From a virus (lineage: Duplodnaviria; Heunggongvirae; Uroviricota; Caudoviricetes), in the IMG/VR virus record IMGVR_UViG_2534681764_000006, positions 1 through 4,087 of that record: a stretch of DNA of 4,087 nt; one strand, written 5' to 3'. Position 1 is the first letter of the stretch, and each line of letters opens with the position of its first letter. Both the position numbers and the translations under genes were made by a program. Shown here in pieces: positions 1-4,087 of this stretch. Under the pieces are notes generated by a model that was not told the origin of the DNA, made no database searches, and saw only the letters and a list, made by a program, of their open reading frames with translations.

Positions 1-162
1 GATAACATCCCACTTCGAACCATAACCGCGCTGATGACGGGATTGTCCTGGCTTGTATTGCTTCCAGCCTTCGCTTTTGTGGCTTTCGCAGTAGCCTGAC
101 GGGTCTGTCGTGGTATTACGGCAGCCGCGAACGCGGCAGGCTTTTGGAGTTCGAGGGGGCAT
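1..162 (-). CDS. HNH endonuclease, N-terminal 54 codons only; the gene continues beyond the left edge of the window
   Basis: Minus-strand ATG at 162..160 preceded by AGGA about 8 nt upstream; open to position 1. Translation MPPRTPKACRVRGCRNTTTDPSGYCESHKSEGWKQYKPGQSRHQRGYGSKWDVI shows the Cys-x2-Cys / GYC-x2-H / RGYG-x2-W pattern typical of phage HNH endonucleases found next to terminase genes. Not in the supplied ORF track because it is truncated by the window edge. Confidence 0.75.
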   Translation of the reverse strand, partial: MPPRTPKACRVRGCRNTTTDPSGYCESHKSEGWKQYKPGQSRHQRGYGSKWDVI

Positions 163-188
163 AAATATATTCCTGTTCTTTATCCGGA

Positions 189-461
189 CTATTTGACTGC
201 TGCCAGCAAAGCGTTACGGCGCATCTCGATACTTCGAATCCCCGCTTTGTCAATATTGCATTGTCCCAACGCCGAAAGCAGGCTCACATTCAGATCCAGA
301 CTGGCCCCATAGGTCAGCGGCTCGGGAATGACTGGCTGGGGAGTTTCAGTAGTCAGGCTTGCTGGCAACGGTACCGCCGGAATCGGTACGTAAACTGTTC
401 GCGTACTTCCGCAACCGGTCAGCAGCGGCAGCAGGCACATGACGTGAAGCACAATCATCAT
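189..461 (-). CDS. o-spanin (Rz1-like outer-membrane lipoprotein), starting inside the Rz gene in the +1 frame and extending past the Rz stop
   Basis: Within track ORF 189..713, Met85/Met86 (ATG at 461..459 and 458..456) begin MMIVLHVMCLLPLLTGC, a signal peptide with lipobox LTGC. The mature part is proline-rich (CGSTRTVYVPIPAVPLPASLTTETPQPVIPEPL...) and has a C-terminal Cys. The ORF part upstream of Met85 overlaps Rz out of frame and is probably not translated. The start codon is uncertain: the SD is weak, and in-frame CTG/TTG codons lie just upstream. Confidence 0.5.
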   Translation of the reverse strand: MMIVLHVMCLLPLLTGCGSTRTVYVPIPAVPLPASLTTETPQPVIPEPLTYGASLDLNVSLLSALGQCNIDKAGIRSIEMRRNALLAAVK

Positions 462-738
462 CCGCAACAGCCACTTTGATATCTTCCTGGGTTCTCTGTG
501 ACTCCAGTGCGATCTGCTGTTTTGCATGCTGGTTAGCCTCCAGAACTGTATTGACGATTTGCAGTGATTGCAGAACGTTACGGGTAATGGCAGTTGCTGA
601 TTCAGCATTTCGTACAGCCTCATCAGCACGCTCCTTTTCGTGCTGATATTTGCTGTAGTAATGCCCGGCAGACCAGATGAAGGAACCAATGACGGTAACA
701 ACGAAGGCAACAATAACCAGCTTATATCTCAGCTTCAT
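346..738 (-). CDS. i-spanin (Rz-like, N-terminal TMD plus coiled-coil periplasmic domain); not the lambda Rz sequence family
   Basis: ATG at 738..736 with GGTGGGG 7 nt upstream; the start overlaps the last 17 nt of the endolysin gene. N-terminus MKLRYKLVIVAFVVTVIGSFIW is a single TMD, followed by a charged Q/E/A-rich helical region and a C-terminal Cys. The position directly after the endolysin, with an embedded +1-frame lipoprotein ORF, fits a spanin. Confidence 0.7.
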   Translation of the reverse strand: MKLRYKLVIVAFVVTVIGSFIWSAGHYYSKYQHEKERADEAVRNAESATAITRNVLQSLQIVNTVLEANQHAKQQIALESQRTQEDIKVAVADDDCASRHVPAAAADRLRKYANSLRTDSGGTVASKPDY

Positions 739-1198
739 TTACTACCCCACCAGCTTTTTTAAATCGGGCAATCAGGTCACCGATTTTATGTTCATACTGA
801 CCGTAACCTGCACCAGGTAACGACGCCCAGATATTGCTGCAACGGTCGATTGCCTGACGAATACTGCCGCGGTCAATCATCGGTAAAGCACCACGCTCTT
901 TAATCTGCTGCAGAGCTACAGCGTCCTGGCTTTCTGGAGAAAAATCTTTCAGGCCAAGCTGTTTACGGTAAGCATCCCACCAGCGTGAAAGAAGCTGGTA
1001 ACGTCCGGCGGCTGTTGATTTGAGTTTGGGGTTTAGCGTGACAAGTTTGCGAGGGTGATCGGAGTAATCAGTGAACAGTTCGCCACCAACAATAACATCA
1101 TAACCGTGGTTTCTGGTTTTCTGCCGTCCGTTATCTGTTCCTTCTGACCATGCCACCATATCAAGGAAAGCTTTACGCTGGGAATTAAGTGTCTGCAT
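722..1198 (-). CDS. R: Endolysin, lambda R-type lytic transglycosylase
   Basis: 158-aa translation MQTLNSQRKAFLDMVAWSEGTDNGRQKTRNHGYDVIVGGELFTDYSDHPRKLVTLNPKLKSTAAGRYQLL... is nearly colinear with phage lambda R as I recall it, including the AWSEGTD segment that holds the catalytic Glu. ATG at 1198..1196 with AAGGAG about 6 nt upstream, embedded in the last holin codons. Identity was not checked by search. Confidence 0.93.
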   Translation of the reverse strand: MQTLNSQRKAFLDMVAWSEGTDNGRQKTRNHGYDVIVGGELFTDYSDHPRKLVTLNPKLKSTAAGRYQLLSRWWDAYRKQLGLKDFSPESQDAVALQQIKERGALPMIDRGSIRQAIDRCSNIWASLPGAGYGQYEHKIGDLIARFKKAGGVVNEAEI

Positions 1199-1201
1199 TA
1201 A

Positions 1202-1561
1202 TTACTCCTTATGGGCACCGAACTTGTTACCGATTACTCGCATTGCCGCCCCACGAATAGCATCAACACCAATCAGCCCCACCCCACCACCAATGGCAAC
1301 AGAAAGCGATTTAGGCCATCCGACATACTCAAGAGCGGATGCAAAGGTCAGCGTCAGAGCGCCACATAGCAAAATCTCGAGCGTTTTTCGCTTCCAGCCA
1401 CCACCACCGCCAAAATAGGCGATGCGCAAACCAGCCATAACGATCGACATAATCACTGCACCCAGCGGAGTGTCTCCACGCCACCAGCTCTGAAACAACT
1501 CCAGCCAGTCCGGCCAAGTATTTGGGTTATGAGGCATTTCATCATCTCTCACCTCGCACAT
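1202..1561 (-). CDS. Holin, three predicted TMDs (class I, lambda S-like topology); possible dual start at Met1 (1561) and Met9 (1537)
   Basis: Three hydrophobic segments (LGAVIMSIVMAGLRIAYF, LEILLCGALTLTFASALEYVGW, LSVAIGGGVGLIGVDAI) and a charged C-terminal tail (RGAAMRVIGNKFGAHKE). Sits immediately upstream of the endolysin with a 3-nt gap (stop TAA at 1204..1202). Two in-frame ATGs lie 8 codons apart; GAGGTGA lies between them, 13 nt upstream of the second. Confidence 0.85.
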   Translation of the reverse strand: MCEVRDDEMPHNPNTWPDWLELFQSWWRGDTPLGAVIMSIVMAGLRIAYFGGGGGWKRKTLEILLCGALTLTFASALEYVGWPKSLSVAIGGGVGLIGVDAIRGAAMRVIGNKFGAHKE

Positions 1562-1582
1562 ATCGCGGGTGCAAATTGAGGG

Positions 1583-1621
1583 AATAAAAAATCCCCGAAT
1601 ATTCCAGGAGCGGAAACGGGG
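1583..1621 (-). terminator. Terminator-like or leader structure about 20 nt upstream of the holin start (two-tier hairpin plus U-tract)
   Basis: Minus-strand RNA CCCCG-U-UUCC-GCUCCU-GGAA-UAUU-CGGGG followed by AUUUUUUAUU. The outer 5-bp GC stem encloses an inner 4-bp stem; the loop is large, so terminator efficiency is uncertain. It could instead be a structure controlling holin translation. Confidence 0.3.
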
Positions 1622-1657
1622 AAAGGCGTTGCACTAATTGGGCCTGTCTGCGGCCTT

Positions 1658-1685
1658 AAATAAAAAACCCCGGCAAATGCCGAGG
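1658..1685 (-). terminator. Rho-independent terminator in the late leader (candidate tR')
   Basis: Minus-strand RNA CCUCGGC-AUUU-GCCGGGG followed by UUUUUUAUUU: a 7-bp stem with one G.U pair, a 4-nt loop and a U6 tract. The G.U pair would be a C/A mismatch on the plus strand, so the structure is specific to the minus strand. Confidence 0.65.
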
Positions 1686-1905
1686 TCAGTTAATCGTTGC
1701 CGCTGTGAGTGCCGCGGCGCACTATCTCTTTATCAGGCCACTTACGCGTTAAACCGGGTGCTAACCGTAACTCAGTGATGCTTTACGCTTCCTCTCCCTC
1801 ACTACGTCGCAATTGGAGCCCGGCCAGATTAACGCTGTCGTCACGTTGCCAATATATGGCATCCAATGCATTCTTTTTATTTAGCTATTTCATTTTTCTA
1901 TCCGT

Positions 1906-1937
1906 CAGAAACAACAAAACCCGCTCAATGGCGGGTT
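1906..1937 (-). terminator. Rho-independent terminator about 85 nt downstream of the Q-like gene stop (candidate tR' or early-transcript terminator)
   Basis: Minus-strand RNA AACCCGC-CAUUGA-GCGGGUU followed by UUGUUGUUUCUG: a 7-bp stem, a 6-nt loop and a U-rich tail. Confidence 0.6.
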
Positions 1938-1939
1938 CT

Positions 1940-2024
1940 GGTAAAGTTCATGCGCTTGATTCGCCTCGCGATACAGCTTTGCGAAGCGTACCGGAATTGA
2001 AGCAGTTTATGCGTAAAAAATCAA
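1940..2024 (-). promoter_or_regulatory. Candidate late promoter (pR'-like) and Q-engagement region immediately downstream of the Q-like gene
   Basis: On the minus strand, TTGATT (2024..2019, overlapping the TGA stop), a 17-nt spacer, then TTCAAT (2001..1996). The -10 hexamer is weak, so this is positional inference from lambdoid architecture (Q, then pR'/qut, then tR', then the lysis genes). Confidence 0.25.
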
Positions 2025-2563
2025 GATATTTTTTGAGCAAATGATTCTCGCATGGGAATATATAGGACATACTCAGCAACAGCCAACCAATTAGCAATTC
2101 GCTTTTCGCATGTGCTAAAACACCACTCAGGATGTGCATCATTTAGCAATTCAGCCATTTTGCGCTTAGTCATCCCCCGCCCCTCATACCGTTGCCGAAG
2201 GATGCTAATCAATCCAGGATGCTCTGCCAACACCTCACTTATGACCCGATCAATACATAACGCCTCTGCATCAGTACAATGCGCCAGCCAGCTCTTTTGC
2301 TTACCGTTAATCATATCCCGCAAAAAAGCCTCAAGTTCAGACTTGTTCAGACCTGCTTTTTTCATCCTCCGGAGCGCCTCGTTAATTGCCGTTTTTGTCA
2401 GCTTTTTAGAGGTCAACATCAGGTTAAACATATTCCCCGTCTTACCGCCACCAATATACGACCAGCGCCCCCACATGCGCAGTTTTCCCTGAATCCAGAC
2501 ACTTTCCAGCGTGGTGAGACTAAGGTGTTCCCCGCTTTTGCCTGTATTTGTTGGGTAAATCAT
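2021..2563 (-). CDS. Putative late-gene antiterminator (Q-family-like), 180 aa; family assignment tentative
   Basis: ATG at 2563..2561 with AGGAAGG about 7 nt upstream, overlapping the upstream stop as ATGA. The track ORF 2021..2683 has a spurious N-terminal extension into the upstream gene. The N-terminal segment LESVWIQGKLRMWGRWS resembles the LERWGAW motif I recall in Q21-type antiterminators. The C-terminal ISILRQRYEGRGMTKRKMAELL looks like a helix-turn-helix. Position between the nin-type genes and a terminator-laden leader before the holin fits Q. Confidence 0.6.
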   Translation of the reverse strand: MIYPTNTGKSGEHLSLTTLESVWIQGKLRMWGRWSYIGGGKTGNMFNLMLTSKKLTKTAINEALRRMKKAGLNKSELEAFLRDMINGKQKSWLAHCTDAEALCIDRVISEVLAEHPGLISILRQRYEGRGMTKRKMAELLNDAHPEWCFSTCEKRIANWLAVAEYVLYIPMRESFAQKIS

Positions 2564-2850
2564 AAATAACCTTCCTTTCTCCAGATTTCTTGTGTGCGAA
2601 AAACACCTTCTGCATGCATCAGGCGTAATTCTTCTTTGGTGTAATCGCTGGTTTTTACCCGCCCGTCGATTAAATCGTGGCATGAGCTACAGGCAATCGC
2701 TGCCTGCATATCGTGTGGTTTTGTCGCTGTTCCGCACGTCCCCGCCAGCCTGTAATGCGCCAGCACAGAAGTTTCGGGATTGTGATTGCAGTAGCCAGGA
2801 ATTCTGACGGTGCACATCTGCCCCCGCGCCGCTTTACGTAAATCCACCAT
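2560..2850 (-). CDS. YbcO-like / DUF1364 Cys-rich putative zinc-binding nuclease (nin-region protein)
   Basis: 96-aa translation MVDLRKAARGQMCTVRIPGYCNHNPETSVLAHYRLAGTCGTATKPHDMQAAIACSSCHDLIDG... matches, in length and in the DLRKAARG / VRIPG.CN.NPETSVLAH / CGT.TKP / IACS.CHD blocks, my recollection of E. coli DLP12 YbcO. ATG at 2850..2848 overlaps the upstream stop as TAATG. Confidence 0.85.
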   Translation of the reverse strand: MVDLRKAARGQMCTVRIPGYCNHNPETSVLAHYRLAGTCGTATKPHDMQAAIACSSCHDLIDGRVKTSDYTKEELRLMHAEGVFRTQEIWRKEGYL

Positions 2851-3449
2851 TACGCAAACTCCAGTAACTGCGCGGCCACATTTTCGACTTCCTCCGGAGA
2901 GGAAAATTTACGGAACAGGATCCAGTTCCACAACACATTCAGTACAGATTTATAAACCTGCTGAAACACGGTTTCGTCCATGTTCGCAAATGCGATAGAT
3001 TTTGCCCTGCGCCCACGACTACCATCAGGATAAATATGCTCGGTGTAAAATCCGGCCTGAATGGTTACCCACTCGCGGAAAGCGTCAAACGACTTTAGCA
3101 ATGCCGTATCCCGGGTTCTGCATGTCGCAACGGTATTAAGGTATTGCTCTGCGGCATCACTCAGGGCTGGAGTGTGTTCCCGACCTACTGATTCGCACAG
3201 GTAATCAACGAAGCCCGATACCAGTTTTCGTTCGCGAGGCGTGATCGCCCCACCGACCGGAGTCCAGTAATCGAATCCCAGTTGCAGGAGTTTGAAAAAA
3301 CGCTTGTGGAATGCGTAGTTACGCACACGCTTAAAGTCTGCGTGTATCCACTCACCTATTTTGATTTGATGCAAAAAATCGCAACTCTCCGGCGTCGCCG
3401 GGAGAAGTAATCCGGAAGAGGTTTGTTTGACCAGTTGTATATGCGCCAT
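2850..3449 (-). CDS. Conserved prophage protein, DUF1367-like, 199 aa, function unknown
   Basis: ATG at 3449..3447 with GGAG 7 nt upstream; uninterrupted 199-codon frame whose stop is coupled to the next gene. The size and position just upstream of a DUF1364 gene match the DUF1367 family as I recall it; this is not verified. Confidence 0.8.
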   Translation of the reverse strand: MAHIQLVKQTSSGLLLPATPESCDFLHQIKIGEWIHADFKRVRNYAFHKRFFKLLQLGFDYWTPVGGAITPRERKLVSGFVDYLCESVGREHTPALSDAAEQYLNTVATCRTRDTALLKSFDAFREWVTIQAGFYTEHIYPDGSRGRRAKSIAFANMDETVFQQVYKSVLNVLWNWILFRKFSSPEEVENVAAQLLEFA

Positions 3450-3496
3450 CGTAGTTCTCCGCTGGCGCAGTAGAATGGGTGTTCAGCCCGTTATGT

Positions 3497-3505
3497 AGTA
3501 TACCA
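3497..3505 (-). promoter_or_regulatory. Candidate extended -10 element (TGgTATACT) about 45 nt upstream of the DUF1367-like start
   Basis: Minus-strand sequence TGGTATACT fits the TGnTATAAT extended -10 pattern. There is no well-spaced -35. Sequence motif only. Confidence 0.2.
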
Positions 3506-3520
3506 GAATTAATGCCAATA

Positions 3521-3733
3521 CTAACAGGATGCTCTGACTCGCAATTCATCCAGCAGTTTATCATTTCCCATAATGTCACTTACCCTCATCGGTAAAAAAA
3601 TTGCCTTTCGACCATTACGATACATCATTGATTTTGGGATTTCAGGGAAGTAATCCATTTCGACTATAACTGACAGGTCATCACGACGTATGACTGCGTA
3701 TTTGCTACTAAATAGTTTCTTTATTTTTTCCAC
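3521..3733 (-). CDS. Small hypothetical protein (about 70 aa) in an AT-rich moron-like insert; probable GTG start
   Basis: The track ORF 3521..3772 begins at a GTG with no SD. An in-frame GTG at 3733..3731 is preceded by CCTGGAGG with a 4-nt spacer, giving (M)EKIKKLFSSKYAVIRRDDLSVIVEMDYFPEIPKSMMYRNGRKAIFLPMRVSDIMGNDKLLDELRVRASC. No TMD and no family that I recognise. The region is visibly more AT-rich than the flanking genes. Confidence 0.45.
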   Translation of the reverse strand: MEKIKKLFSSKYAVIRRDDLSVIVEMDYFPEIPKSMMYRNGRKAIFLPMRVSDIMGNDKLLDELRVRASC

Positions 3734-3813
3734 GATGCCTCCAGGTTTATAAGTACAAAAGGTTATATCCACATAGAGACAAAAATATTAATCTGAAAAA
3801 TATTTATTTCACG

Positions 3814-3886
3814 CCATATATTTGATTATTTAATGTGCAGGTACAATGACTTTTATTTTGTGTTGTGTATATAATCAAATATATGG
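3814..3886. repeat. Perfect 16-bp inverted repeat pair with a 41-bp AT-rich spacer, upstream of the small ORF
   Basis: Plus strand 3814..3829 CCATATATTTGATTAT and 3871..3886 ATAATCAAATATATGG are exact reverse complements. A consensus TATAAT at 3870..3875 on the plus strand lies inside the right arm. Confidence 0.9.
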
Positions 3887-3915
3887 TTATTTTTCACCCT
3901 GCGTATTCAGCGCGC

Positions 3916-3940
3916 AACAAAAAACCCGCCGAAACGGGTT
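3916..3940 (-). terminator. Rho-independent terminator after the upstream gene (nin-region tR-type terminator)
   Basis: Minus-strand RNA AACCCG-UUUCGG-CGGGUU followed by UUUUGUUG: a GC-rich stem with a U-tract, about 70 nt downstream of the stop codon at 4011..4009. Confidence 0.6.
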
Positions 3941-3979
3941 AAGCGCGGGTGCGTTGAGGATGCCTGACTCATCAGAGGT

Positions 3980-4001
3980 GGCGAGGGATTTCTCCCTCGC
4001 C
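3980..4001. other. Stable 9-bp stem-loop (GGCGAGGGA-loop-TCCCTCGCC) with no U-tract, 8 nt downstream of the upstream gene's stop
   Basis: Plus 3980..3988 GGCGAGGGA pairs perfectly with 3993..4001 TCCCTCGCC across a 4-nt loop. It lies in the 3' UTR of the minus-strand gene, upstream of the terminator. Confidence 0.5.
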
Positions 4002-4008
4002 TAGTCTC

Positions 4009-4087
4009 TTACTCCTCAGGTTCGTAAGCTGTGAAGACAGCGACCTCCGTCTGGCCGGTTCGGATTCGTACCTCGCAGAGGTCTTTC
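4009..4087 (-). CDS. 3' end of an upstream minus-strand gene (last 25 codons plus stop); identity unknown, possibly a nin-region gene
   Basis: The frame with codons starting at 4086 reads ...KDLCEVRIRTGQTEVAVFTAYEPEE then TAA at 4011..4009, using common codons. The other two minus frames are rich in rare AGG/AGA/CGA codons. The C-terminal pattern loosely resembles RusA-type resolvase C-termini, but 25 residues are too few to assign. Confidence 0.45.
   Translation of the reverse strand, partial: KDLCEVRIRTGQTEVAVFTAYEPEE

Follow-up and report, generated by a model that had tools for sequence, protein, structure and literature searches.

The late leader and its terminator-like hairpins

This analysis concerns a 4,087-nucleotide (nt) stretch of a Caudoviricetes genome (IMG/VR record IMGVR_UViG_2534681764_000006, positions 1 to 4,087; hereafter the window), in which all genes lie on the minus strand and follow one another, 5' to 3', as the 3' end of a hokD-type locus, a small open reading frame (ORF), a DUF1367 gene, a YbcO/DUF1364 gene, a Q-like antiterminator gene, an untranslated leader, holin, endolysin and Rz. 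Its closest complete genomes are Escherichia coli prophages (~95% identity), and isolated phages have only pieces of it in common. The leader between the Q-like gene and the holin carries three terminator-like hairpins (T1, T2 and T3), the second of which closes a structured RNA that we term block B. With fair though not strong confidence, we read the three hairpins as real terminator signals that form the 3' ends of blocks stacked by lambdoid mosaic recombination, and block B as a mobile leader RNA. The features concerned are listed below, the coordinates of minus-strand elements being given from high to low, i.e., 5' to 3'.

2021..2563, minus strand: Q-like antiterminator gene, DUF1133 family (Pfam), 180 amino acids
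1538-2020, minus strand: leader, 483 nt from the Q-like stop codon to the supported holin ATG
1985..2024, minus strand: candidate late promoter, read from the sequence (-35 TTGATT at 2024-2019, 17-nt spacer, -10 TTCAAT at 2001-1996)
1990-1985, minus strand: -10-like TACGCT, a possible sigma-dependent pause element
1940-1915, minus strand: stem of T1, intrinsic terminator by scan and folding, with tail TTGTTTCTGA to 1905
~1906-1656, minus strand: block B, putative mobile structured leader RNA of ~240 nt (Shine-Dalgarno (SD) sequence and mini-ORF, hairpins, pseudoknotted core, 3' hairpin, T2)
1687-1666, minus strand: stem of T2, intrinsic terminator by scan and folding, with tail TTTTATTTAA to 1656
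1667-1575, minus strand: holin-proximal block C (~90 nt), with hairpin GGCCGCAGACAGGCC at 1655-1641 and T3
1622-1583, minus strand: T3, weak terminator-like hairpin judged by U-tract and folding, with tail ATTTTTTATT to 1583
1202-1537, minus strand: holin gene, lambda S family (Pfam, RefSeq start); 1202..1555 when the SD GAGGTGAGAG at 1555-1546 is included

The three minus-strand hairpins with U-tracts that an earlier note on this DNA had described between the Q-like gene and the holin are all present where it placed them, and its division into two convincing terminators and a weaker third agrees with the folding energies: -16.1 kcal/mol for T1 (z-score -3.06) and -15.4 kcal/mol for T2 (z-score -3.40), each equalled by only 1 of 200 shuffles, against -13.2 kcal/mol for T3 (z-score only -1.56; 16 of 200 shuffles as good). 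T1 and T2, both of which were also picked by a consensus terminator scan, combine a G+C-rich stem, a short loop and a direct U-tract with a stability above that of shuffles, and are predicted to be strong, textbook intrinsic terminators; T3 is, by the same modelling, marginal. The U-tract of T3 is good and its stem poor, with a 19-nt loop or else three G-U pairs; the stem can be drawn as UCCCCG..CGGGGA (1622-1592) around a branched loop or as a small hairpin at 1609-1593. Over the whole window the scan returned 10 terminator-like sites (4.2 +/- 2.1 in shuffles), seven of them on the minus strand and three of these inside the leader.

The position of T3 depends on the holin start. The holin (Pfam Phage_holin_3_1, E-value 2.6e-27) begins in RefSeq relatives at ATG 1537, behind its SD, and not at ATG 1561, so that the leader occupies 1538-2020 and the T3 U-tract ends 45 nt before the start codon. 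The hairpin does not, therefore, abut the holin start as previously supposed, and as it does not touch the holin SD either, the suggestion of a direct translational control by T3 is unsupported. The in-frame ATG at 1561, eight codons 5' of the supported start (1541-1561, minus strand), would add an acidic extension, MCEVRDDE; that of lambda S107 is basic. Since no SD accompanies this ATG, a lambda-style dual holin start is doubtful.

The Q-like protein belongs to DUF1133 (E-value 1.5e-105; its RefSeq relatives are annotated as DUF1133 family proteins), with a weak similarity to Phage_antitermQ (PF06530; 27.9 bits, cut-off 26) and, in PDB, a weak match to Q21 (E-value 0.16). A promoter read from the sequence, with its -35 element overlapping the Q stop codon, is the putative late promoter; T1 lies ~80 nt from its candidate start, with holin, endolysin and Rz downstream. 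Two other alleles have this layout too (TTGCAA-17-TTCAAT..TACGCT in L002 and TTGCAA-17-TTGAAT..TATGCT in L009). No Q-binding element was discerned. Two other candidates were rejected: the pick of the promoter scan, TTGGCT-18-TATATT at 2086-2057 inside the Q ORF, is not conserved and the equivalent codons of other alleles are not promoter-like; and the promoter plus terminator that follow Q in L002, taken at first sight as pR'/tR', belong to a leader of an ORF6N gene that is also found in the early-left operon of phage PA2. This ~270-nt leader, shared by ORF6N antirepressor-like genes (2860-3129, minus strand, in L002; 1835-2108, plus strand, in L062, phage PA2), consists of TTGACT-18-TATATT, short hairpins, a terminator and a conserved stretch up to the start codon; as it is found both behind a Q gene and within an early-left operon, it looks like another portable regulated leader.

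In the lambda late leader, promoter pR' and the qut site precede tR', which yields the 194-nt 6S RNA and is read through by Q-modified RNA polymerase. The window shares with it a Q-family gene, a promoter-like site, a strong terminator and an untranslated leader before holin, endolysin and spanin genes; it differs in its Q family (PF03589 in lambda), in the putative status of its promoter and pause element, and in having two more terminator-like hairpins and a structured RNA between tR' and S. The earlier note had seen in these additional terminators a departure from the one-terminator lambda paradigm. This contrast loses its force beyond lambda, as the RefSeq record of phage HK639 (NC_016158) annotates four consecutive coding-strand terminators between the Q-like gene and the holin (L134, 44331-45164), and in five other loci a simple finder located two to four coding-strand terminator-like hairpins per Q-to-holin leader. 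Several terminators between Q and holin are ordinary for such leaders. The HK639 leader has no sequence relation to that of the window and no block B; its antiterminator RNA is at pL rather than in the late leader, and the record also annotates a putL-like RNA and an 'M3-like RNA'.

The distribution of leader segments among 5,426 complete E. coli genomes delimits the blocks. Segment 2100..1906, from the Q 3' end to T1, matches 1,298 genomes, mostly ending at 1906 right after the T1 U-tract and followed by unrelated content, e.g., a 190-amino-acid gene or tRNA-Met; T1 stands directly 3' of DUF1133 Q genes in otherwise different leaders, and the T1 hairpin also follows an ORF6N gene (L002/L003). 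In CD45-type prophages, window positions 2034..1480 come after an inserted ORF6N gene and not after Q. The block B interval (1905..1575 or 1903..1659) is found in only 38 genomes, eight of which match just 1903..1659, ending right after T2, 3' of a different Q gene; homology to KC-Dl-1-type prophages likewise stops at 1659. The holin-proximal stretch 1667..1575 occurs alone, 5' of a lambda-family holin, in strain C311, and the holin-module homology of SfV and SfIV begins at 1572 and 1586. Judged from these boundaries, the leader is a mosaic of blocks A (Q 3' end to T1), B and C, each ended by one of the hairpins.

Block B, its structure and its family

Block B begins with a ribosome-binding signal and a minute reading frame and continues into a conserved fold, the elements of which are as follows.

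1906-1901, minus strand: degenerate SD GACGGA (GGAGGA in relatives)
1893-1885, minus strand: mini-ORF ATG AAA TAG, from alignments, at the 5' end of block B
1848..1860, minus strand: P2 hairpin GCCATATATTGGC (RNAalifold columns 49-66)
1716..1829, minus strand: pseudoknotted core (covariance model R1 and covariation)
1818-1814 with 1798-1794, minus strand: S1 helix, CTCCA with GGGAG
1803-1799 with 1778-1774, minus strand: S2 helix, AGTGA with TCACT
1767-1765 with 1757-1755, minus strand: P6 helix, CGG with CCG
1723-1708, minus strand, within element 1699..1723: subtype-specific 3' hairpin AGTGCGCCGCGGCACT, found by eye

Across the family, the core is an H-type pseudoknot with a small hairpin in loop 3, accompanied by the covarying hairpin P6. 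S1 covaries from TTCCC/GGGAA to CTCCC/GGGAG, and S2 (AGTGA/TCACT) is replaced, depending on lineage, by CCAG/CTGG, CUCG/CGAG, UCCU/AGGA or GCGC/GCGC; a third core helix (GCG/CGC, or GCA/UGC in phage 7-11) is possible. In a model-guided alignment 93.8% of the cells are paired, compared with 32-52% in slid controls, none of 500 shuffles reaches any of the measures, and changes on both sides are seen in 11 of the 19 core pairs; a plain MAFFT alignment gives the same picture. One pair of P2 also shows compensatory changes (UA 18, AU 17, CG 2). Downstream of the core, the loop GCCGC of the 3' hairpin may pair with AGCGGC at 1704-1699 to form a second pseudoknot, both pairings being kept, by eye, in relatives (GGTGCGCCGCGACACC..AGCGGC in L072/L074 and GGTACACCGCAACC..AGCGGT in L005). 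The sequence of block B is strongly conserved even in unpaired stretches.

Of two alternative pairings, a long-range GCGTTAA/TTAACGC pairing proposed by eye was dropped, being broken by GGTGATA variants, with the local hairpin AGCGT-GACGACG-GCGTT covarying instead; the other, GGTCGGG/CCCGGTT, is doubtful, since it competes with the local P6, which alone is supported by L054. A coding role was also rejected for both strands, since the 36-amino-acid ORF at 1871-1761 changes its frame relative to the core between copies and the antisense ORF at 1709-2044 (1856-2044 in the L001 annotation) likewise differs in frame, with indels of 1-2 nt inside the core in either case. The 62-amino-acid hypothetical protein that RefSeq lists opposite T1 and the beginning of block B (window 1856-2044, plus strand; 4525-4713 in L001) is probably a spurious call. 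With compensatory changes and no conserved reading frame, block B is, on comparative grounds, a structured non-coding RNA.

The mini-ORF is a regular part of the family. An SD followed by ATG, at most five codons and a stop is present in 74 of 89 distinct members (72 of them with 1-3 codons), as opposed to 10% of shuffles and 5 of 89 downstream control regions, with a median distance of 65 nt from stop codon to core; phage 7-11 instead has an ordinary 41-amino-acid ORF that ends where the mini-ORF would. The encoded peptides (M, MK, MKQ, MVH and others) are variable and only 1-3 residues long, which makes codon-specific sensing unlikely. The earlier note had seen room for a short terminated RNA or a small RNA (sRNA) in the ~220 nt between T1 and T2, and a conserved structured RNA does lie there. 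A separate sRNA gene is another matter: a scan for promoters between T1 and the mini-ORF found none, and with only ~10 nt from the T1 U-tract to the degenerate SD there is no room for one, which renders a free-standing gene unlikely. A moron (promoter-gene-terminator cassette) was discarded as an identity for block B, which has no upstream promoter of its own.

At the other end the RNA is variable. An intrinsic terminator follows the core by 60-230 nt in 24 of the 89 distinct members, and in 24 others a helix GAGTGG...CCACT directly abuts the SD and ATG of the next gene.

The family was collected by sequence pattern and then by model. A core pattern recovered 47 viral contigs and four reference genomes (Citrobacter, two Enterobacter and Salmonella), and a looser one 104 stretches, only two of which look like chance; distant copies occur in Serratia phage OS31 and the lytic Salmonella phage 7-11. 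Covariance model R1, based on 52 representatives, detects a single copy in each of 129 loci (93 + 36; 64-124 bits) of enterobacterial phages and prophages and none in lambda (33-46.5 kb), HK022 (also with filters off), HK639 or phage PA2. Rfam 15 gives no match at E <= 1 on the leader (at E <= 10, just hits of 9-20 bits driven by terminators) and none over block B in L004, L005, L006, L008 and L099, and a full-text literature search with core sequence strings returned only unrelated primers. We regard block B as a credible new RNA family; the stacked terminators themselves are ordinary.

Two genomic contexts prevail. A consensus boxA, (C/T)GCTCTTTAACAA, lies 70-550 nt upstream of 46 of the 91 distinct copies, 44 of them without a terminator just upstream, and these boxA-linked copies are early-left (pL) leaders. 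In another 21 distinct copies the mini-ORF is directly preceded by a terminator alone, and these stand in late leaders after Q proteins; the Q proteins that block B follows come from three Pfam families (PF03589, PF06576 and PF06530). A cI-like repressor is the 5' neighbour in 22 loci and a holin the 3' neighbour in 18, and the core is also present in a 49-kb plasmid. By clustering, five loci have an N-like gene next after block B, and that of L099, the only one tested, encodes an N-family protein. The hairpin P1 is unlikely to be an N-binding boxB, as boxA is 150-340 nt further upstream in the N-encoding loci.

Two further elements were noted in these neighbourhoods. An unannotated stretch of ~165 nt after pL is common to L062 (phage PA2; 1500-1662), L006 (2286-2450) and L008; seen in several prophages and in PA2/TL-2011c-type Stx2 phages, it starts with an rrn-type boxA, TGCTCTTTAACAA, and has no N gene annotated nearby. 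The block B-containing leader of L004 also holds a member of the STnc100 sRNA family (129 bits) and a tRNA-Ile before the holin (3163-3365 and 3469-3544).

Other features of the window

The genes flanking the Q-leader-holin segment are as follows.

2850-3449, minus strand: DUF1367 gene
2560-2850, minus strand: YbcO/DUF1364 gene
722-1198, minus strand: endolysin gene
346-738, minus strand: Rz gene

No tRNA or tmRNA was found in the window. At the 3' end of the hokD-type mRNA (3919-4000, minus strand), Rfam reports weak matches to isrK (26.9 bits; gathering score 50) and rsmX, probably driven by hairpins and a terminator at 3940-3923. Between the hok-type locus and an 83-amino-acid minus-strand ORF (3521-3772) with no annotated function, an A+T-rich stretch (3780-3900) contains two sites on the plus strand that resemble promoters, of which ATGACT-18-TATAAT at 3846-3875 scores best (10/12).

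Interpretation of the leader

Under the reading that we favour, block A, comprising the Q 3' end, the probable late promoter and T1, would be the counterpart of lambda pR'-tR', with T1 as the tR' equivalent at the 3' end of a Q-linked block. In the lysogen, polymerase without Q modification would stop at T1 to give a terminated RNA of ~80 nt, and any leak would be caught at T2 and perhaps T3. After induction, by analogy with lambda, Q-modified polymerase most likely reads through all three hairpins, and the lysis mRNA would then carry block B as its 5' leader. The transcript ending at T1 would correspond to 6S RNA and to StxS, a regulatory short RNA initiated at a late promoter and terminated at tR' (PMC7547250).

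Several observations weigh against this picture. The consensus scan missed the candidate promoter because its -10, TTCAAT, has no A at position 2, where one is usual. Blocks B and C occur together in 22 of the 23 E. coli genomes that hold C, and a terminator directly precedes the mini-ORF in 31 of the 89 distinct copies, distant ones included, so that T1 and block B may be one functional unit and not an accidental stack. Six related copies keep the T2 hairpin without its U-tract, which suggests that this hairpin may have a structural role beyond termination. Finally, comparison with its relatives indicates that the window copy of block B may be inert here: its SD is changed from GGAGGA to GACGGA, the P1 hairpin, which stands before P2 in relatives (ACGGAAAGACCGC), is lost (AAATAAAAAGAATGC), S1 has CTCCA for CTCCC with one pair broken, the conserved ATGG reads ATTG, and its R1 score (98.2 bits, E-value 9e-29) is the lowest in its subtype, where the others reach 108-114 bits.

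The changes just described, together with the fact that many prophages of such kind are defective, give some room to the view that block B and T3 are decaying recombination debris in this prophage and that T1 alone matters. We hold this to be unlikely, since apart from these changes the core and T2 are preserved, viral contig L016 contains an identical copy, positions 1575-1905 are identical in three genomes, those of strains PEC148, PEC178 and PEC422, and the lysis genes 3' of the leader are intact ORFs.

A more demanding alternative, close to the multiple barriers of the earlier note, is that the terminators were selected together as a triple gate that makes the holin tightly dependent on Q. 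Holin leakiness is lethal, hence redundancy is plausible; three same-strand terminator-like hairpins do fall within 483 nt, and the whole arrangement recurs at 97-100% identity in ~22 E. coli genomes. Each hairpin, however, ends a block that is found separately elsewhere. T2 also follows the same RNA in the 49-kb plasmid with no Q or holin nearby. T3 does not clearly exceed shuffles, and leaders with two to four terminators and other intervening content are common. With hairpins that end separately mobile blocks, the evidence does not show a purpose-built triple gate, and we give this alternative little weight.

Little weight is likewise given to block B as an RNA that renders polymerase terminator-resistant, in the manner of put or an rrn-type boxA, and overrides T2 and T3. 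Known put RNAs are of ~70 nt, fold into two stems and act in cis via the zinc-binding domain of the RNA polymerase beta' subunit. Those of HK022 and HK639 are cis-acting processive antitermination RNAs (PMC9378689). Like them, block B is a structured RNA that can directly follow pL in an early-left operon, often lacks an accompanying N gene, has a stop codon a short way 5' of it (as putR does after cro) and frequently a terminator on its 3' side; the 46 boxA-linked copies occupy the putL/nutL position after cI and pL, mostly with no N gene in sight, and most of the others belong to late leaders under Q control, so that the operons are antiterminated in either context. An identity with put, suggested by position and by the stretch GGTCGGGT.CCC..GGCG, is nevertheless ruled out by nhmmer, which found no match to putL or putR in any locus, and by R1, which finds no copy in HK022 or HK639. 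The put-like stretch seen by eye (GACGACGGCG..GGTCGGG) is replaced in many family members, the core spans at least 116 nt with an H-type pseudoknot in place of two stems, and block B also occurs 3' of Q genes. The conserved mini-ORF would have no role in put action, and the N-like protein encoded right after the RNA in five loci would make such an RNA redundant.

Least probable, in our estimate, is a trans-acting sRNA or decoy that lytic growth would produce and that T2 or processing would set free, with the terminators defining its ends: StxS is a precedent, the late leaders of enterohaemorrhagic E. coli (EHEC) prophages tolerate insertions and carry sRNA genes or morons with sRNAs of 51-60 nt (PMC4104026), terminators flank block B in 20 of the 89 distinct copies and its conserved unpaired stretches would suit host-factor binding, but block B is much longer than the EHEC sRNAs, follows tR', has neither an Rfam match nor a promoter that fits between T1 and the mini-ORF, bears a conserved SD with start and stop codons that is unusual for an sRNA, and in 24 distinct copies leads, with no terminator in between, straight to the SD and start codon of the following gene, as is typical of a cis leader.

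Returning to block B as a mobile leader RNA, we tentatively suggest, as a possibility rather than an expectation, that it acts as a cis-acting leader or attenuator, a role favoured by its variable 3' platform, its position before the first genes and its need for a terminating ribosome. In such a model, a ribosome terminating on the mini-ORF would set the fold of the core, which in turn would decide the state of the 3' platform, i.e., a terminator here and, in other phages, a helix near the ribosome-binding site. A strong SD and an ORF of one to a few codons 5' of a structure, often with an intrinsic terminator, are features that block B shares with leader-peptide attenuators, 'start-stop' mini-ORFs and lambda bar minigenes; it differs from them in the ~65 nt of hairpins between stop codon and core and in its conserved pseudoknot.

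Overall, the stacked terminators alone change nothing, as inserted blocks are routine between Q and lysis genes. Block B is located where phages decide on N-type early genes or a lethal lysis cassette, and it could conceivably, though we would put this at clearly less than even, represent an undescribed class of phage leader RNA with an interchangeable 3' platform, heading both types of antiterminated operons (pL/boxA and pR'/Q) and working via a terminating ribosome or a modified transcription complex. Such a class might act, for example, as an attenuator set by the ribosome, as a novel antiterminator RNA or as an insulator that processes itself and shields the first gene. If functional, block B would add an RNA-level layer to the classic antitermination circuits in the form of a small portable element, the mini-ORF of which allows an easy test of ribosome dependence by a single start-codon mutation.

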